From: Savitreella phatthalungensis
Lineage: Eukaryota
Length of the DNA: 21,365 nucleotides
Direction: 5' to 3'
NCBI GenBank assembly: GCA_051599415.1
Contig: AP039713.1
Location: forward strand, 186,001 to 207,365
This document shows, one piece after another, positions 7,334 through 21,365 of the stretch. The position numbers were made by a program, and so were the translations under genes. Under the pieces are notes generated by a model. That model worked only from the letters and a program-made list of their open reading frames with translations. It did not search any database and was not told where the DNA came from. The first letter of the stretch is position 1; every line of letters begins with the position of its first letter.

Positions 7334-8496
7334 TCAAGACAGAGTCGGAGGAAGATCGTCAGATAAGTAAAGAAAACCAGCCAGCGATCAACGGTAAAGG
7401 GACAATGTCGATGATACGATGACGCAGTTCATCCGAGCCGACCCATACACGAATGATTCCGCTTGTTCCAGTAGTCGCACCAGTACTCACGAATGTACGC
7501 GTGCAAGCACTCTAGATGAGACGTGACGATTTGACGAACGCGGAAGCCGACGCGGGTGTAGTTTGTGTAAGTATACTAAGTCCGCTGACTCTCGTGGAGA
7601 TATCGTACCCACCTCAAGCGTCTACAACATCCTTCAGGAAGCGTGAATAAACGTGACCAGCATCCCAAACTCACTCACTGTACTCAGCACTCAATAACGA
7701 GCTCACCTGCCCTTCTAGGATACTTTCAGAATACCTGACCAGGGAATATCGATTCATTCATATAGCTGGATCCGCTTACTGGAAATATCACGCGGAATGG
7801 TAGCGCGTGATTCGTCCAAATCCGCCATTGTAACTCACCTCATGTGATTCATCGAATATTGTTGGGCTCTTGATCCATTCATACATTCTACATCCTGTCA
7901 GGTCTGTAGAAAGTTGGACGTATCTGTGCGAGGTATACGAAAAAGTAATTGTTGTTCAACCTCAGTTCATTCGACCAGTGAAGTGTTCTGTGATTGGATC
8001 GGACAAAAGAATCGTTCAACTCTAGACTCTCATTCATATCTATTAACAGTAGAACCAGCGCTGGATCGAGTTCTCTGTCCTACCTGCGCAAGTAGAATCC
8101 AAACCTCCTCGATATCATGAAGATGAATTGACTTCCCACTCAAAAACAACTCCCGTCACCCACAATAGCCAACCAAAGTCCATAAGCACTCTCATCTCCG
8201 CTCAATTGTTTATATCAACCAGGCGAGATCTCCACTGGGCCAGTCAAAGCAGGTGAAGGAAAAGCTTGAAGAACCTAAAGTCTGAGCCGTTGGTAGGTCT
8301 CTCCCCCCAGATCGACCCCAGAAGATCCAGAGTCAAGGCTCCACGCTCGTGAAACCGCTTCAAAACAACTTATAACAAACCATCAGGACGTTCGTGTAAC
8401 GATCTTCAGAGGTCTTCCGAGCTCTTTGACGTTCATCTCATCTCCACCTCCACCTCCACCTCCCTACGCATCCTTATCCTCTTTCTAATACACAGC

Positions 8497-10771: not shown

Positions 10772-11518
10772 ATGACTACAGAAGACCATGAAGACGGCTT
10801 CCCGCATCCACCACAGCTTCTGAGCAGAGATGTGTCTATCACTGACGCACCGCGCAGGGCGTACACGACGCAGGAGCCCGTGGAAAAGCGCAGAAAGTTG
10901 GAATGCGATACAATCAACGAGCTGATCAAGCAACGCGACAAAGCACTCGATGAGCTGATCAAGCAACGCGACAAAGCACTCGATGAGCTGGTCAAGCGAC
11001 GCGATAAAGTCCGGGACGAGCTCATCGAGCAACGCGACAAAGCACTCGATATACTCAACGAAGAGCGACTCCAGACCAGGCGCGCACGGAAGGAGCGCGA
11101 CCTCATTCATCACCTTGCGAATGAACGCGGCCAGCAGGTGACCGCGCTGCTGCAGGAGGTGACTGGCCATCTCAGCGTGCGACAGACGCTCGAAGGCGAG
11201 TTCCTCCGGGTCACGGAAGCGTATCGCGAGCTCAAGCGGCTTACAAATGCAAATGCCGCCCAGGCTAGAGCAGCACAAGCGCAGTCGACAATTTCTGGCA
11301 ACTCTTCGACGACCACATCCGGGTCAGAAGGTGCACCACCCAAGATATCCGTGTCAGAACCTGCTCAAGCCGATCCGTCCTCGATGCCCAACAAAGTAGA
11401 CGAGGGTGTCCGCGCAATCTCTCGGCTCACCGCAGCGCTGGTAGAACAACAAAAGTTCAGATCAACGCTCCTGCAGATTCAGAAGCTTCTGAATGACTAT
11501 CCTGTCCGCAAGCTCTAG
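10772..11518 (+). CDS. Hypothetical coiled-coil protein with 11-residue repeats
   Basis: 248-aa ATG-TAG ORF with coding-like C/G-ending codons. It has in-frame 33-bp repeats (ELIKQRDKALD), an S/T/P linker and a helical C-terminus. No family recognised. Confidence 0.65.
   Translation: MTTEDHEDGFPHPPQLLSRDVSITDAPRRAYTTQEPVEKRRKLECDTINELIKQRDKALDELIKQRDKALDELVKRRDKVRDELIEQRDKALDILNEERLQTRRARKERDLIHHLANERGQQVTALLQEVTGHLSVRQTLEGEFLRVTEAYRELKRLTNANAAQARAAQAQSTISGNSSTTTSGSEGAPPKISVSEPAQADPSSMPNKVDEGVRAISRLTAALVEQQKFRSTLLQIQKLLNDYPVRKL
10919..11050 (+). repeat. 33-bp coding tandem repeat x4
   Basis: gagctgatcaagcaacgcgacaaagcactcgat is exact at 10919 and 10952, with diverged copies at 10985 and 11018. 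Confidence 0.9.
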
Positions 11519-11721
11519 CAACCACGATATAGGCTATAGTATCAATATCATAACAACAGCCGCTGCAAGAATGAATCCCCGCGACTACACGATCAAGGCC
11601 TATAGAACGTGTCCCGTGTACGGCAAAGATTGTCACACATCGTCACGAACCTCGTCACGGATCTCGTCAGGTAGTCGCACCGCTGCGTTCAATCATTTCG
11701 TCTCGTTAGGATCTACCTCCG

Positions 11722-12039
11722 CTATCGCAGGTTCAGTTCGCGCTCAAGCCGTTCAACTCGACGCTCCAGCCGGGATACCAGGCTGACGTGCATTCCAGCA
11801 GACTCCATTGTCGCCTGCAGCTGTGACATTGCGAGCGGAACCCTCATGATGTCCTGCATCGTCTGTGAGATCGTCTCCAGCGTCCTTTTGAGTCCGCGAA
11901 TGGTCCGGCGCAGCGATCTCCAGCTCGGCACCACCTCTCTCGCGCTCTCCTTCAAGGCTTCAGCCACCAGTACCACCACCTCACCGATCCCGCTCAGCGC
12001 AGCCGACGTCGCTGGAAACAGTTTCTCGATCGTGTGCAT
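11722..12039 (-). CDS. Small hypothetical helical/coiled-coil protein
   Basis: 105-aa ATG ORF with amphipathic helices (LRRTIRGLKRTLETISQTMQDIM, LVSRLERRVERLEREL). It converges on 10772-11518. Confidence 0.45.
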   Translation of the reverse strand: MHTIEKLFPATSAALSGIGEVVVLVAEALKESAREVVPSWRSLRRTIRGLKRTLETISQTMQDIMRVPLAMSQLQATMESAGMHVSLVSRLERRVERLERELNLR

Positions 12040-12825
12040 CCTTGTTGAACGGTGGTGCGTGTGTCTGCGTCACGGATGATATCCCGTGCAAATCAAGTTG
12101 AGATCATGTGACCTCAATCGACAAAAGAATAGAGTAGTTGGCGAAGCATACAGAGCCGTCATGATGGCGGCGTCAATTGGCTACAGCGATCACGCCATGA
12201 GAGCTCTGCCTATCTCTGGCCCGTACAAGTCAAACACAGAGTTGCTGGCGTATTTTGATGACGGCGCGATTGCATGACGACCGCGTGTCTGACGGCACAC
12301 GACGAGCAGCCGGCGATATGACGCATATTGGAATGAAAAGCGTTCCTAAAGCGATGATGGGCGCAACACACGTCCCACCCACTGCACACGATTGCAAGGG
12401 CGATATAGAGGCTGACAGTGAGCAACCGACACTCCTCAGCGCTGATGCCAGTACGAATCGGGGAATTTTATCTGGGGATCTTGAGGACGTCGCCAAAGGT
12501 TCCCAGAGAGTGACGCGTGATACGACAGCTTCATCTCACATATCTGTGACACGAGCGATTCTTAGCCAGGGATCTCAAGACATACGCAGTCAGTGCGAGC
12601 GAGCAGCGTACGCTGGGGATCTCACCTCGACGACGGTAACGTGCTGACGCTCCGGGAAGCGCAGAGAGTGTCATCAAAACAGCCTAGCTCTCGCTCAGAC
12701 GGTTCGCGCTGAATACGATATGGTCATCTGCAACCGATTGGCCTCACGACGATGTCGGACCGCGCTCTCAACAGGCGCCTCAACGGACGGTCACCGACCG
12801 GAGCGCACGATCGACAACACGCGCA

Positions 12826-13518
12826 TCACAATCGATGACGAGGGCACACGCGACTGACTTCGCACTCGCAAGAACAAAATTTCAGGCCTGTATGGACAAG
12901 GCAGCGACGCAAAGCACGCATCTCGATCGTCTGAATCGAGGATACGTTCCCGCGGACATCTGGGACGAATGCGACTCCATAGCCATAATGAGCAGAATCG
13001 GGTAGTAGACATCGGTTTTCATATCTCCATCTATACAGCCAACAACAGGGAGCACGAGCGTGGATGAGATGGGCGACGTAGTGTAGGGTCATCTCCGGAG
13101 AATAGCTCGAGTGAGCGACGCAGGAGCCACTGCGCGCAGTCAGTTGATGTTACAGCCACTGGACGTGCATCTCCACGACCGAAGTCCCCGACAGGAAGCT
13201 CAATGTAGGGTAGAGACTGTAAATTCTCGATCAGATCCGGAGCGACGAGCGCGGCTGGGGTAGAAGATTGAGCCCCGTCGATCGGATCCCCCATTGACGT
13301 CTCCGGGACCTCATTCGATTGGGGAGCCTGAGCGTTCTCGATCAGATCCGCGGCGTCGAGCTCAGGAGGTCTCAAGAGCAGGGCTGACCCCTAGCAGGTG
13401 TATGCGCTCTCGGACACTGAACAGTGAGCTCGACCGGACGAGGAGGTGGTACTTTTCTGATCCGGTTTGCTAAAAGAAGCTCAAGAGAAGCGAGCGACTG
13501 TGGTTTGTTATCTGTCAT
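12826..13518 (-). pseudogene. Possible decayed or frameshifted orphan gene
   Basis: An ATG at 13518 opens 48 codons (MTDNKPQSLASLELLLANRIRKVPPP...) that stop at 13372. There another frame continues (RPPELDAADLIEN...APDLIENLQSLP, 13375-13031), and a third frame runs 13092-12826. An exact 16-bp repeat, ttctcgatcagatccg, occurs at 13224 and 13335. No homology recognised. Confidence 0.25.
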
Positions 13519-14196
13519 GGCAACAGCTCTCGCTGGACGAGCATCCACAGCAGGGCCAGTGCCAGGTGTCGGCGGGTCAGCGCTTGGGCGTCTGTTTCAT
13601 CCGCTGCGTCAGTCACGTGCTCGCGATCAATCGAGTTTCTATTGTTTTGTCTGATGTTGAAGGTCAGAGACGGTTGAACGCTGACAGTTGAGCACCATTG
13701 ACGTTATCGCCTTCGATATCCCTTCGAAGAGCTGTCGTCATCCATGCAGTCTGAATGATGGACGCTAAAGATGTCCTTCCGAGCGCTCTCGACGTAAGAT
13801 GGCTAGTCAGCCCTAGCGAAGCTGGACCGATAGGTGTGGGTGGCCGTCCACATTGGTGTTCCTGTGCATATGTGTGGACGCGAGATTATGCAGCATTCGA
13901 CCACAAACCTCTATTTTGCCCTCCAACTATATTGCATGCATGATTGAATGGTCGCGTGGCAATCCGGTGAGTTGTCTAATTTCACGTGATGGCTCCAGAA
14001 GGTGGTTACCCGTTGCCGGCTGTTTCATTTTTCATTCTGTCAGCATCCTCGTCATCATCCTTGCTCGTCCGTCTACGACATCGTTGTGATCGTCGAGCGC
14101 TCCTCTATTGTCCAGCGCCCACCTAGTCAATCATCGGTCTTCTTCCTCACCCGTGACTAATCCCTAGAGGACATTTCCATTGTCACCGTCGTCCTC

Positions 14197-15153
14197 ATGG
14201 AGTCAGTCAAGGAGGAGTCCCGACCTCAAGAGAATCCGAGCGACAATCCGAACGAGGACTCAGGCGCATCAGCGTCCATGTCTGTAGCCGGCAATACTAC
14301 CCGCTCAACTCAAGCTGCGCAACCTGCGCGCGTGCATGTCCATCCGGGAGACTTCTCTCCTGGTCCCGTGTCTTCGACAGGCCTGGCTGACCGCAGGCGG
14401 GCGTTATCAGCTTCCATCCGCGTCTATCTTACACTCGGGTACGACTGCGTTGACGGACATCAGATTGACGACATTCTCAACAAGCTGTGGCCCTACGTGG
14501 AGTCCACGTCTGGTGAGTATCGCGATCTTGCTGCCTATGGCAAGACTCGAGCGCGCGAGTACATCGCTACCTCCATTGCCGCCTTCCGCTACGCAATCGA
14601 ACTCGTCGAGACCATGCTTCCGCCGACCAACAATGCCGTGCTTGCCATCAGGGACATGTACAATGCCGGCAGCATCGATCTCCAGGACATCTACCCGTAC
14701 GCAACTCCCCTGATCGATTTTCCTGCTTCTTGCGTCAAGTCTACAGTCTTCAATGACTACTATCGGTTGATCTTTTCGGCTTTCGGCAAGCATATGCTTG
14801 CGGTGATTCGAAGGGAGCTGCCGAACACAAATGGTACTCAATCAGACAGATCGACCACGGTCTTCAAGGAGCTGCGAACGTTTGCGGCGGCAAAGGGCTT
14901 TGCCCTACCGACCATCAACGATGTCGCCTTCTTTCCTGCTGTCGATCAGGAGTCTTCCGAGAGCGCTGAAGTACGCCGCCGCCTTGCCTCCACGCAGCGT
15001 GTGATTGCTCTAGTCGACGATCCTTCCTTCCAACCAGGACTGTTCGAGTCGGCCGTCACGCCTGAGGCTCCCTCAAATGACGACGCTCGGAACAACCTGC
15101 CGCCGGTCTCAGAACTTCTCCGGCAGTCAGCTCGCCGATTTGGACGCCCTTGA
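14197..15153 (+). CDS. Hypothetical protein (disordered N-terminus, helical core, C-terminal LPPVSELL)
   Basis: 318-aa ATG-TGA ORF preceded by a pyrimidine-rich leader, with strong preference for C-ending codons like the neighbouring real genes. No family recognised. Confidence 0.7.
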   Translation: MESVKEESRPQENPSDNPNEDSGASASMSVAGNTTRSTQAAQPARVHVHPGDFSPGPVSSTGLADRRRALSASIRVYLTLGYDCVDGHQIDDILNKLWPYVESTSGEYRDLAAYGKTRAREYIATSIAAFRYAIELVETMLPPTNNAVLAIRDMYNAGSIDLQDIYPYATPLIDFPASCVKSTVFNDYYRLIFSAFGKHMLAVIRRELPNTNGTQSDRSTTVFKELRTFAAAKGFALPTINDVAFFPAVDQESSESAEVRRRLASTQRVIALVDDPSFQPGLFESAVTPEAPSNDDARNNLPPVSELLRQSARRFGRP

Positions 15154-15466
15154 AATACACACACAGTCACAATTTATGAACGGACCTGAAGTCTCGTAGC
15201 TGCTCAGTATATTATCCCACAACAAATTTAGCGCACCCATTGTTGTCGTTCACGTGCGCCACCGGAGATCGTTTGACGAAAGTGAACACCCCACACGCGC
15301 ATGTATCGCTTTGTGCATCGCCTGCGCCTTGTGATACGTATATGGCACTTTTACAGAGTGGTCGTACACGCGGTTTGTGCCCGGACTACCATCATCCTTC
15401 ACGTCAATTCAGCACTGTCGCTAAAGTCGCCCACAGAACACTGCTCATCATTAATCTCGCCGTCAC

Positions 15467-15985
15467 AATCAGGAAGCTCGTCATCCTGACGGCTGGCCCC
15501 TTCATCAACCTCCACGGACAAGCATCATCGTCGGCGGGCAAGCGTGAACTTCCACGGACAAGCGCCGTCGATTCAACCCGCTCGCCACGGTCGCGACCAG
15601 TAAGCTCGTCATCTACAGAATGCTCGTCATCTTCGTCACACTCGCCGAGCCGTGCCTAGGAAGATTGTCGCCTGGAGCAGCAGCCTCGTCGCCGTCGTCT
15701 ACAGAAACGCTCGACGTCTTTCGCCTCCTCAGGGCCGCGATCAAGAAGCTCATCGTCTAGAAAACGCTCGTCATCGTCATCCTCCTCAAGATCAACATTA
15801 AGCACTCTCGTTGCCGCCGTCTGCAGAAGCGCTCATCGTCCTCTGCGTCCTCACGGGCGCGAACAAGAAGCTCGTCGTCTTGAGATCGCTTATCTGGAAG
15901 ACGCTCGTCTGGAGAACGCTCTTCATCCTCATCGTCCTCCCTGTGATCAGAAAGATCGTCGTCTGGAGAGCGCTCGTCATCCTTC
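15467..15985 (+). repeat. Degenerate repeat tract, consensus ~GATCAAGAAGCTCGTCGTCTRGAGAACGCTCGTCATCCTC
   Basis: Related units near 15467 (aatcaggaagctcgtcatcc), 15595 (gaccagtaagctcgtcatctacagaatgctcgtcatc), 15696, 15739 (gatcaagaagctcatcgtctagaaaacgctcgtcatc), 15818, 15861, 15906 and 15945 (gatcagaaagatcgtcgtctggagagcgctcgtcatcc). Confidence 0.65.
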
Positions 15986-16129
15986 TCCAGAGCGCGTATC
16001 ATCCTCATCACTCTCGACATTGATCCAGCGCCCTCCGTCGCAGTCGGCGACAGATCGCTCCACACCGGCAGCACGCTCGTCGATCGCGGTCACCTTATCA
16101 GCGGCTCCAGGATCGTCTGGACTGATAGC

Positions 16130-17785
16130 ATGCCCGATCTGAGTCGAATCTACAAGGAACTCCGAGAGCTCGCGGCGACGTCTCCTCCTTCCGAGACCTT
16201 AACAAACTTCATCATCAGGCGGCAAAGGGATCATCGTCGGCCATGCGCGCCTGTCACTGTAGCGTACGACAAGGCGAAACCCTCTCCAATCCCGCGCCTT
16301 GTCCGACTAAATCGGTACCAGACCGCCCTCATTGTGATGATGCCCCGTCCGATCACCACCAGAGGCGGCCAATCTTGGGTCGCCAGCGCCTGCAAAGAGC
16401 TCAAAGGCTATGATCGTGTTGAGGATCTTTCCTCAGACGCACAGATCATGAAGTGGGCTCTCAGCGACTGGCTGCACCTGTACAAGTGGGAGAAGAAGAA
16501 AGAGCCTCAAGGGTGTCGAGGCTTCAGCATCGCCACGCCTGTGATCCTCTACATCCTCAGGCAACTTGGCAAGCAGAACGTCCCCGATCGCGCCAGGGAA
16601 CTTCTACACATGAAGATGCTCGTCGAGGCCATGTTCCGATACATCACTTGCGAGACCCATTCCAACGCTCGAGCGTGCAGGATGGGTGAAGATCAGCTAT
16701 ATCTCATCGCAGGCATCAGTCGCGAGGGTGAGATTGCGCGCGGTACAAGACCTACGAGTGATCTCAGGAATCTCAATATGAGGCTCTATGCAGGACGCTC
16801 GAAGAACGGGACCAGCAGGCTGCTCGGACACATCCATGCCACAGACCCGAATGACATTCCTGGCGATACTCGACGCGGCAATCGAGGCGGTAATCGAGGC
16901 GACAATCGAGGCGGCGATCAAGGCGGCAATCGATCAACAAAATCCAATCGGCGCCGACACGTACAAGATGTTGACGAGACCCTTTACAAGCTTCATGACG
17001 GCAGGGAGGGCGCCGAGACACTTCTCTTCTTCCAGTGGCAAACAAATCGGCTGGATCGCGATGTCGAGGAATCGCTTCTTATCTCAATTGCACCCTGTCA
17101 CTACCTCAGCAGTCTGACAGGCTGCAATATGATCGGCAGCGACACCTGTGGCGCACTCCCGATGCCGCCGATCATTGCTCAGAATCCCATGGGGCGCTGG
17201 AAGGAGGTCATCAGGAAGGCGTTCAGCTATCTGCTCACCTATGACGGCAAGTACACGGCCTTCATGACTCCTGGTCCCTTCAAAGGGTGGACAATCACCA
17301 CAGCAGAGAACAAGCCAGGCAAGCCGAGAGTCGATCAGGGGTTCCTACGAATCTTCCGGAATATGGATCTTGCAGTACAGAAGACATGCGATCACTTCGG
17401 GATCAGCTACACCACCATTGACGTCAGTCGCGCTATCGCTATACTAGGCTGCAGGCCTGTAGTGGCTGACGATCGACGTCAGAGGACGCTCGACGCTTGG
17501 ATTTCTGCAGGTCCAGATGGGGAAGGAAACAGAGACGAGATTGAAGACGAGATTGAAGACGAGATTGAAGACGAGATCGAAGACGAGATTGAAGACGAGA
17601 TCGAAGACGAGATTGAAGACTACATCGAAGACGAGACTCCAGCCGAGATCGGCGAAATCGAAGACGAGATCGAAGACGGGATGGAAGACGAGATCGGAGA
17701 TGAGATTGAGAAGGTGGACGAGACCGCAGGCGAGACTGAGGAGGTGGACGAGACTGCAGGCGAGATCATAGAGATTTCAGATTGA
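16130..17785 (+). CDS. Hypothetical protein with putative GIY-YIG nuclease domain, RGG insert, PIP-like box, acidic DEIE tail and terminal SIM-like motif
   Basis: 551-aa ATG-TGA ORF. In order: QLYLI (aa189), LYAGRSKNGTSRLLGH (Y220, R230, H234), EESLLI (E313/E314), GCN (N333), QRTLDAWI (aa451), (DEIE)7 and terminal EIIEISD. The ORF itself is well supported; the functional labels are motif-level inference. Confidence 0.7.
   Translation: MPDLSRIYKELRELAATSPPSETLTNFIIRRQRDHRRPCAPVTVAYDKAKPSPIPRLVRLNRYQTALIVMMPRPITTRGGQSWVASACKELKGYDRVEDLSSDAQIMKWALSDWLHLYKWEKKKEPQGCRGFSIATPVILYILRQLGKQNVPDRARELLHMKMLVEAMFRYITCETHSNARACRMGEDQLYLIAGISREGEIARGTRPTSDLRNLNMRLYAGRSKNGTSRLLGHIHATDPNDIPGDTRRGNRGGNRGDNRGGDQGGNRSTKSNRRRHVQDVDETLYKLHDGREGAETLLFFQWQTNRLDRDVEESLLISIAPCHYLSSLTGCNMIGSDTCGALPMPPIIAQNPMGRWKEVIRKAFSYLLTYDGKYTAFMTPGPFKGWTITTAENKPGKPRVDQGFLRIFRNMDLAVQKTCDHFGISYTTIDVSRAIAILGCRPVVADDRRQRTLDAWISAGPDGEGNRDEIEDEIEDEIEDEIEDEIEDEIEDEIEDYIEDETPAEIGEIEDEIEDGMEDEIGDEIEKVDETAGETEEVDETAGEIIEISD
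16877..16933 (+). repeat. 12-bp coding repeat (GGCAATCGAGGC-like) x~5, encoding GNRG/RGG units
   Basis: ggcaatcgaggc ggtaatcgaggc gacaatcgaggc ggcgatcaaggc ggcaatcga. Confidence 0.85.
17534..17629 (+). repeat. 12-bp coding repeat (GACGAGATYGAA)x7 plus one variant, encoding (DEIE)7DYIE
   Basis: Directly visible. More degenerate copies and a duplicated EVDETAGE unit continue to about 17765. Confidence 0.92.
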
Positions 17786-19773: not shown

Positions 19774-21185
19774 CAAGACATGCATGACTGTGAGGAAAAT
19801 GACGTCAAATCAGGTGAAACGCGATCGTGAAAAGCACAGCCGTTTCAGATTGATTTTTAGAGCGTTTGGCGAGGACTGGTGGCTCAGAGATGTTTGAACC
19901 CATCAATCGATGATCATGTCGTCATGGGGTTTCCGGTACTGGGCACGCAGTCAATGCAATCAGAAGGGTGGCGTCGCGGTCAATCCCGATCTAGAGCGAC
20001 AAAGTCCAAACGAGTCTACTGAGTTGTGAAAGGGATCATGCGACCAGCGATGAGTATGGGCTGCTGCAGATACAGGCAGAGCGAGCACGCGATTCGACAG
20101 AAAAGGCAAGACCGGCAGCAAGATAAGAAGAGAATGAGGGAGCGAAAAAACAAGATCGGCGACGCAGTTCTGCGGCTGAAACAAGATCGGCAGCGGGATA
20201 ACAAAACAACGACGACAGCGGAAAGATATGCGTGTCGACAAATGACCAATATCTGCAAAAGTAACGTCAATGAAGGATTTATGCTGTGGAGGACAAAACA
20301 AAAGAAGCGGACGCGTTTGTCGCATGAGTCAAGCAAGAGAAGCGTCTGAAACACCGCAAATGTGAGCGATAGCGGGAGCATCTGCCATTTTGAGGGGAAA
20401 TCGACAGCCCTCAGGGTCATAGACGGCAAGAAACGTCCCAATCGCCGTGTCAAGGCATGTTTCACACGAGATGGGGGTTCATTGTGTGGTGAACAGGAGG
20501 GAAATGACAATTCGACTCCAGTGAAGGCGCCGAGTGAGAGTGTGGCTGGCAAGGTTTGTTGACGCAATGAGTGGCATAGGAAAATGATCAACCAAACCAT
20601 TGGGGCGGGAATCAGCACCATGTAGTGTAGTGACGGAGTGGAATGCCGACACAAGACAGACAGGAGTATCAGATTTTGAGGATGGAGACGGCGCAATGGT
20701 TGTAGCGTTCATAAGCGTGAATGCAAATGCACGACGGTGGGATGGCGAAGAAATTGATTGGATGCAGACGGGACAAAAGCCATGAGTTCAAAGTGTAAAA
20801 TGAGGCAGTGGCGAAAATAAGTGACACCGTAAACAAACATCGAGATTAACCCACGTTAGAAGCGTGTACGCGGGAACGTAACAAGGTAGCAGGCCAGTAG
20901 CGTAGAGACAAGGATAGCTGAGGAGAGAGCCCCCAATCGTGCATTGGAACAGTAAGACCGATAAGGCCATTCAAATGAATAACAGAATTGAAAGCGAGAG
21001 GGGAAGTGCGGGAAGCGTGAAAGGCGAAGGACGGATGGAACATAAGTAGACCCCAGCAGGAGCGAATGCGTGCAGGCGAGCATAGCAAAGCAGCAGGCGT
21101 GAGCGGAGAAACGATGTTTGCGAAGGACCGGAGCAGAGCGAGAGTTGGGGCATTGGTTAGTTTGACGGCGGTTAGTTTTTGTGGG

Positions 21186-21295
21186 TCAGGGTCAGGGTCA
21201 GGGTTAGGGTTAGGGTTAGGGTTAGGGTTAGGGTTAGGGTTAGGGTTAGGGTTAGGGTTAGGGTTAGGGTTAGGGTTAGGGTTAGGGTTAGGGTT
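21186..21295 (+). repeat. Telomere: (TCAGGG)3 followed by (TTAGGG)15 + TT
   Basis: TCAGGG x3 at 21186-21203 and TTAGGG x15 at 21204-21293. The G-rich strand runs 5'->3' toward the end of the window, as expected for a right chromosome end. Confidence 0.97.
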
Positions 21296-21365
21296 AGGTG
21301 CTGTTCTCGCAAAGGCAGAAAGTAGTCTTAACCTTAGCAATACGTAACTGAACGAAGTTGTCAAA
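21296..21365 (+). other. Untrimmed Oxford Nanopore native barcode (NB06/BC06) with flanks plus ligation adapter; technical artefact
   Basis: AGGTGCTG (21296-21303), TTCTCGCAAAGGCAGAAAGTAGTC (21304-21327), TTAACCTT (21328-21335), AGCAATACGTAACTGAACGAAGT (21336-21358). These match the ONT barcode flanks, barcode 06 and the Y-adapter bottom strand as recalled from the kit sequences. Confidence 0.95.

Follow-up and report, generated by a model that had tools for sequence, protein, structure and literature searches.

The right end of contig C25 in the genome of the leaf yeast Savitreella phatthalungensis carries a two-gene subtelomeric nuclease cassette, which is a real feature of this genome and an arrangement hitherto undescribed. 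Its second gene, G1, probably encodes a divergent nuclease of the GIY-YIG type with predicted nuclease activity, and its first, gene A, encodes an orphan protein; the same pair recurs at the left end of contig C19. We tentatively explain the cassette as a selfish nuclease-plus-partner module, probably of the toxin-antidote kind, that moves between chromosome ends. The window is the whole 21,365-nt stretch of DNA that was analysed, and positions given without a prefix refer to it.

The genome consists of 12.7 Mb in 27 contigs, of which the window forms the right end of C25; telomere repeats are present on all 54 contig ends, the window's included, and the proteins of this assembly are labelled as those of S. 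phatthalungensis, a Taphrinales yeast. By profile matches, the genes in the window's left half are ordinary ones (a proteasome subunit, a protein kinase, a HAD hydrolase, a zinc-cluster factor and an MFS transporter), past 10.4 kb there are orphans only, and from 10.3 to 21 kb this end has almost no DNA in common with other ends. One of these orphans, a single-copy ORF of 248 aa (10772-11518), has a basic stretch and a coiled-coil repeat with a unit of 11 residues. Between 17786 and 21130, blastn finds about 70 nt (21053-21121) common to other ends and no more, and the C19 left end has a telomere-adjacent repeat of about 1.3 kb common to most ends. Telomere-linked helicase-type ORFs occur at several ends (L067:6824-9712 and L013:283-3057), one of them with weak OrsD, integrase and DEAD matches. 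At both contig ends the telomere repeat is flanked on its outer side by a similar non-telomeric tail (21299-21365 and L004:1-67), which resembles untrimmed nanopore adapter plus barcode. The features of the window that concern us are:

12583..12844, plus strand: segment S, 262 nt, 74% identical to C19:14426-14166
14197..15153, plus strand: gene A, first gene of the cassette, a 318-aa orphan; homologue at C19:7854-8780
16130..17785, plus strand: G1, GIY-YIG-like nuclease gene, 551 aa, from the ORF list and its translation; paralogue at C19:10278-11558
16130..16669, plus strand: N-terminal domain of G1, aa 1-180, basic and mostly helical; conserved in the paralogue, with 48 identities in 161 aligned columns
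16688..17137, plus strand: GIY-YIG-like catalytic core, from invariant residues in the two-copy alignment A1 and an ordered-pattern test
16850..16963, plus strand: RGG/GN low-complexity insert after the Arg helix; a tandem repeat and a gap in alignment A1
17150..17450, plus strand: C-terminal domain (aa 341-440) that is conserved in the paralogue, where 37 of the 112 columns aligned over aa 341-457 are identical
17510..17785, plus strand: acidic tail made of repeats, 50 of its 91 residues being D or E; the paralogue has no such tail
21183..21298, plus strand: telomere repeat (GGGTTA)19, from a repeat scan of the window

G1 is open for 551 codons in the standard code and ends 3.4 kb from the telomere; beyond it lie only short or low-complexity ORFs (at most 201 aa). 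We reject an assembly artefact on the evidence of one contig of run X1, possibly the assembly's own source, which spans 10961-17562 with zero differences from the window. The 551-aa protein was absent from the protein collection when six start sites were tried. Its GC3 falls within the 0.62-0.65 of the cassette genes, which is nuclear-type and close to that of two neighbouring housekeeping genes on C19. The domains on either side of the core belong to no known family: the N-terminal domain has no Pfam match and a best structural Z of 5.5, which, coming from a low-confidence model, is not meaningful, and the best Pfam E value for the C-terminal domain is 0.14. The low-complexity insert that had been noticed before the Glu helix is indeed present, with a 12-nt tandem repeat at 16862-16933, and the acidic repeat runs from 17533 to 17765. 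Both insert and tail are missing from the paralogue, and we therefore regard them as accessory.

A genome search identified that paralogue at C19:10278-11558 (426 aa), 10 kb from the C19 left telomere and 26% identical to G1 over 439 columns (pairwise E 2e-35). The view of G1 as a stand-alone orphan is thus wrong, since one paralogue exists at another chromosome end and each copy stands second in a conserved cassette of two genes. In the ORF we find the order QLYLI, LYAGRSKNGTSRLLGH, DVEESLLI and TGCN as it had been read, with the core residues Y191 (16700), Y220 (16787), G222, R230 (16817), H234 (16829), E313/E314 (E314 at 17069) and N333 (17126). Six of six residues (Y191, Y220, R230, H234, E314 and N333) are kept in the paralogue, for which the joint chance is 0.001 with residue-type-matched rates and 0.002 with a flat rate, 126 of 394 aligned columns being identical; G222 is likewise conserved. 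The check suggested earlier, conservation of Y191, Y220, R230, the Glu and N333 in a homologue, therefore comes out in favour of every one of them, and of the two glutamates put forward as metal-binding it singles out E314, as E313 is not conserved.

Taken along the core, the GIY tyrosine is Y191 in LYLIAG of G1 and Y179 in IYLLIG of the C19 copy, and the YIG equivalents are Y220-A-G222 and Y214-V-G216. Arg at +10 (R230 and R224) and His at +14 are present in both copies and agree with the sequence of I-TevI. There follow the linker strand (LLFFQW and LVIHW), the Glu (E314 and E282) and GCN with the final Asn (N333 and N299); an Arg helix after YIG is seen in one low-confidence model only. This order agrees with the core order given in the part of PMC3045582 available to us, namely GIY-YIG hairpin, helix with the arginine, linker strand and helix with the glutamate. 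The spacer from GIY to YIG is 29 residues in G1, close to the length first estimated, and 35 in the C19 copy, versus 10-14 in 14 of 14 GIY-YIG controls. A short hairpin of 10-14 residues is usual, not strictly defining, for the superfamily; at the level of sequence, both copies have its catalytic-residue features but not its usual hairpin length. The catalytic set is intact in both copies, though their DNA has ceased to align. Directly downstream of the C19 nuclease copy is a single-copy 229-aa orphan (L005:2053-2742) that has no counterpart in the window.

Library searches gave weak leads. Neither copy has a GIY-YIG match in Pfam, NCBIfam or PADLOC. Across the 38,880 families of PHROGs, the sole match listed for the paralogue's core is phrog_5123, a GIY-YIG homing endonuclease (E 0.28), and G1's own core has none. 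We also built a GIY-YIG profile of our own from control domains, using 14 of the 15 retrieved and leaving out one short match; in its ranking of 512 ORFs the two copies came 8th and 12th, at E 13-16, which is not significant. In a profile-profile comparison, hhalign matched up the YxG..R..H block (E 0.081), with a score that 2 of 60 column shuffles also reached. In the Atlas, GIY-YIG clusters scored 0.84 and 0.88, under its 0.9 mark and behind unnamed Ascomycota clusters (0.88-0.90), among which distant fungal relatives may exist. Two AlphaFold2 models, computed from 2-sequence alignments, had mean pLDDT values of 41.8 and 40.0 and gave no reliable core, so that four fold searches were uninformative, also as regards families that they did not list.

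We also used motif patterns. The first was over-fitted (0-1 of 14 controls recovered) and was discarded as evidence. A loose ordered pattern was composed with the targets already in view, and its spacer limit was widened to suit them. It detects 12 of 14 known GIY-YIG domains and matches G1 but only 3 of 2000 shuffles of G1, so that the motif set exceeds chance. Among 512 subtelomeric ORFs of at least 180 aa it matches five, both cassette nucleases and three members of a second family, and none of the other 507; with 3 to 7 matches in 2000 shuffles per target, about one chance match is expected among the 512. The GIY-YIG assignment made from the sequence at the outset thus gains from residue conservation in the paralogue and from weak, concordant leads, while no fold or significant profile match confirms it; the fold and the nuclease activity of G1 are predictions.

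None of the searches returned a relative from outside this genome. A phmmer search of 1.84 billion representatives returned the paralogue alone. Word-index searches of limited reach with alignment A1, the paralogue's core and the second family returned this genome's proteins only. Scans of viral, metagenome and prokaryote contigs confirmed none of their candidate stretches (0/51, 0/469, 0/70, 0/296 and 0/166). Phage tblastn gave E values of 1 or worse, or nothing, with one of two inspected matches antisense to annotated genes, and PDB sequence searches matched the RGG insert or nothing.

Gene A and its C19 homologue are 22% identical over 261 columns (pairwise E 1e-10), and the homologue is the top non-self match of gene A in a genome search (E 0.0027). 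At both loci gene A lies upstream of the nuclease gene on the same strand, with gaps of 1.0 and 1.5 kb; tight linkage of a gene pair at several loci, a feature of toxin-antidote drivers, is thus seen at two of two. Genome searches found two full-length copies of each gene. When 96 end segments of 10 kb and the window were searched with profiles, neither gene turned up in a third complete copy, and extra gene A fragments lay solely beside the C19 copy. At 10 right-hand contig ends, coverage of the second 10 kb came from the whole-genome single-protein searches, which are less sensitive than the profile and pattern searches used elsewhere. The cassette occupies 2 of 54 chromosome ends, with no young duplicates. 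Gene A has no methyltransferase match in Pfam, NCBIfam or PADLOC. In run X2, whose kind is unrecorded, depth is very uneven and a contig (13991-15233) brackets gene A; contig depth is no measure of expression. Among the samples listed, one contains this DNA and none of RNA does; run X3 matched neither the window nor core genes, which does not amount to absence.

The two cassettes differ in orientation: the C25 one faces its telomere, and the C19 one faces the opposite way. Segment S, which is unique to the two cassette-bearing ends, has the same orientation relative to the telomere at both. It contains stops and one indel, shows no codon periodicity and no Rfam match, and looks like a decayed gene. 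Since the cassette is inverted relative to telomere and segment S between the ends, it has been rearranged as one unit and flipped at one end; that S is common to both indicates that the two ends have common ancestry. S can be aligned as DNA and the coding pairs cannot, which implies either unusually fast protein evolution or later exchange of S. Scans of ORFs from the two loci gave no match to a transposase, integrase, reverse transcriptase or capsid family, and the window's 10.3-21.15 kb contains no terminal inverted repeats. An autonomous transposon, which needs a transposase or reverse transcriptase and boundaries, is disfavoured for this reason. A FLEX-like GTAAAYA motif, of the fission yeast type, is not found near the window's gene A or nuclease gene. 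The C19 left end, alone of 135 loci, has a perfect 16-bp palindrome with two GTAAACA sites (L004:4645-4660 and 7339-7354), one copy of which sits between gene A and a broken second-family gene; these sites resemble a forkhead/FLEX site.

That second family emerged from clustering of the subtelomeric ORFs and is found on C16, C17, C19 and C13, 4.5 to 18 kb from telomeres. Its copies and the two inverted repeats of the C19 left end are:

L087:547-1917 (C16): intact second-family copy, from ORF clustering
L088:8042-9376 (C17): intact second-family copy, from ORF clustering
C19:5380-6570, minus strand: second-family copy broken by stops, from ORF clustering
C13:4522-5640: second-family copy broken by stops, from ORF clustering
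L004:9134-9629 (C19): hairpin of gene A fragments with 233-nt arms, 89% identical, from an inverted-repeat search
C19:13101-13784 (L005:3101-3784): second inverted repeat, built from coiled-coil gene repeats; matches the C17 coiled-coil gene

The family has a like ordered GIY-YIG-like motif, with spacers of 31-33 residues and the Arg-His pair at +16 rather than +10. At C16, C13 and C17 a coiled-coil repeat gene, encoding 1285, 493 and about 1600 aa respectively, is arranged head-to-head with it, and the family's gene starts 44, 44 and 95 nt away. The window's own 248-aa coiled-coil ORF was considered as a homologue of these partners and rejected, as no homology was detected. Neither was any detected between the two nuclease-like families (hhalign E 0.44 and 0.77), and the second has no library match and no outside relative in the searches. 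We regard it as a separate family of similar anatomy, for which the putative nuclease assignment, made from sequence, is weaker than for G1.

The hairpin of gene A fragments sits between gene A and the nuclease gene on C19 and folds at -414 kcal/mol versus about -158 for 10 crude shuffles. Of 97 end segments, 5 have hairpins of at least 100 nt, and two of the 5 belong to the C19 left end; further long inverted repeats, not more than 10 kb from other telomeres, are at L014:2848-3355, L017:7290-7836 and L062:1493-1950. Inverted repeats derived from drivers serve as suppressors in the cases of Dox/Nmy and pseudo-Kindr (PMC12941216, in the part available), and by analogy the C19 hairpins could be RNAi suppressors, or else scars of broken-end repair. 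The gene A hairpin is a point in favour of a selfish module; against it count the hairpins in 3 other end segments and the consideration that a hairpin aimed at the antidote would harm its own carrier.

The selfish module reading is drawn from this anatomy: a nuclease-like gene with its catalytic residues intact always stands beside its own fast-evolving partner at chromosome ends, and copies are born and die in the second family, where a nuclease-like gene again has a dedicated partner. In such a module, G1 would be a GIY-YIG-type DNase with a long GIY-YIG hairpin and two lineage-specific flanking domains, encoded by the second gene of a selfish cassette. The nuclease would act as a poison by breaking the DNA of progeny, and the protein of gene A, inherited with it, would be its cognate inhibitor or regulator, such that cells or spores inheriting the cassette would survive and siblings without it would die. 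Persistence would come from ectopic recombination onto new chromosome ends, with both genes diverging together. We infer toxicity, the role of gene A and drive from this anatomy. A functional precedent is Spok, in which killing depends on a predicted nuclease domain (PMC6660238, as far as the available text goes). Counting against the module are its having two old copies only, with no young duplicates, and the lack of a FLEX-like site near the window's pair, and against drive the statement, in the accessible part of PMC8877625, that neither ascospores nor any sexual cycle has been observed in culture. Of the two roles envisaged at the outset, a selfish element fits the anatomy better, and no positive evidence was found for the promotion of subtelomeric recombination. 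A wider proposal, which we consider rather doubtful, is that two independent long-hairpin GIY-YIG families, each with its own partner, are DNA-cutting toxin-antidote drivers (or end-homing elements) hopping between ends, and that the host answers with partner-gene hairpins.

The pair could also be a nuclear homing-type element, whose nuclease would cut a cognate site at cassette-free allelic or ectopic ends; gene conversion or break-induced replication would then mend the cut end by copying the one that bears the cassette, with gene A giving specificity or control. GIY-YIG domains are typical of homing endonucleases (PMC1564403, available text), the sole PHROG match is to such a family (E 0.28), the inversion and the two fold-back repeats at the C19 locus resemble break-repair scars, and segment S is confined to these two ends. 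We nevertheless think homing unlikely, because the cassette is at only 2 of 54 ends in copies only 26% identical, no NUMOD or HTH DNA-binding module scored, and the C25 end from 10.3 to 21 kb has almost no DNA in common with other ends. A domesticated host enzyme, by analogy with Slx1-Slx4, would be a lineage-specific structure-selective nuclease with gene A as activating partner, at work when subtelomeres recombine or telomeres are processed, which was the first of the two roles envisaged at the outset. Such an enzyme would fit with the fact that two intact pairs have been kept over a long time and that GC3 is 0.62-0.65, near that of two neighbouring housekeeping genes on C19. It is improbable given that a separate Slx1-like gene is present on C4, that the broken second-family copies would go unexplained, and that a host repair nuclease is expected to have relatives in other fungi, whereas the searches returned no homologue from any other organism; the telomeric position is uninformative about where the protein acts.

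G1 might also be a fast-evolving subtelomeric orphan of another fold with a convergent motif, the pair having an ecological or contingency role. Its atypical spacer, the want of a significant profile or structure match and a pattern test tuned with the targets in view speak for convergence, to which we assign a low probability: six of six residues named beforehand are conserved, three weak leads (Atlas, PHROGs and hhalign) concur on GIY-YIG, and the ordered motif, which the other 507 of 512 ORFs all lack, recurs in the second family. Finally, a large mobile element or a virus, now extinct, may have left the genes behind as relic or cargo, and their retention at the ends would then serve defence or self/non-self recognition and not drive. 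Both are indeed single open frames without relatives amid decayed sequence (segment S and fragments of other orphans). This is very unlikely in view of the failure to find a relative in viral contigs, an integrase, transposase, reverse transcriptase or capsid family in the scanned ORFs of either locus, or terminal inverted repeats in the window's 10.3-21.15 kb.

Like GIY-YIG superfamily members (I-TevI, the UvrC N-terminus, T4 EndoII and Slx1), G1 has the GIY Tyr, YxG, linker strand, Glu helix and final Asn, and like I-TevI it has Arg at +10 and His at +14; unlike them, its core is mid-protein between two domains of no known family, its hairpin is longer and it has no significant library match. 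It is not an Slx1 orthologue, since Slx1 is characterized by a C-terminal RING finger and no final Asn, while G1 has the Asn and no RING match, and an Slx1-like gene lies elsewhere, on C4. A Penelope endonuclease was rejected as no reverse transcriptase rose above noise in the scanned ORFs of either locus, the one 21-residue match to PADLOC RT_I-B (E 0.042) being at noise level. An intron-encoded or mitochondrial homing endonuclease was rejected on the lack of an Rfam intron (in the window and C19 1-20 kb) and of NUMOD, and on GC3 of 0.63-0.65. These scans of the loci accord with the initial reading that RING, reverse transcriptase and group I intron context are all missing. Nuclear GIY-YIG nucleases, according to the available part of a survey, are Slx1, an ankyrin/LEM group and enzymes of retroelements or ciliate elements.

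Among selfish elements, wtf and tdk1 of fission yeast are single-gene toxin-antidote systems and are not known to be nucleases. They share the subphylum with our yeast and are lineage-specific toxin-antidote genes, and wtf moves to new loci (PMC12941216, available part); no Pfam family links either to gene A or the nuclease. Spok of Podospora is alike in being a fungal, multi-copy, relocating element with a predicted nuclease (PMC6660238), and it differs, according to the accessible text, in being one protein with a PD-(D/E)XK nuclease and a kinase antidote, whereas here we see a GIY-YIG-like core, no kinase and a separate partner gene, and drive is only conjectured. The nearest positional precedent is UMAG_11064 of Ustilago maydis, a homing-endonuclease-type GIY-YIG gene at a fungal chromosome end; as the available part of PMC7593156 describes it, this is a mitochondrial insertion of recent date, whose active site is mutated and which is apparently non-functional, unlike G1 with its nuclear-type GC3, intact motif in two ancient copies and conserved partner gene. 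The GIY-YIG restriction endonucleases Eco29kI and Hpy188I (PMC1564403 and PMC3045582, both in part) likewise have a core enlarged by insertions and terminal extensions and are paired with a second gene. Their partners are cognate methyltransferases, while gene A has no methyltransferase match and the host is a eukaryotic nucleus. In full-text searches of the open literature we found no report of a GIY-YIG nuclease as such a driver in a eukaryotic nucleus, nor of such a cassette.

A paired, subtelomeric, long-hairpin form of GIY-YIG would represent a family not described before. Should it prove to be a driver, the fungal spore killers Spok, wtf and tdk1 would be joined by one that kills by a different chemistry and consists of two genes, and the setting is the subphylum of fission yeast, where drive is directly testable. 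Even without drive, the two cassettes offer two small, cloneable nuclease-partner pairs with clear putative catalytic residues to mutate.
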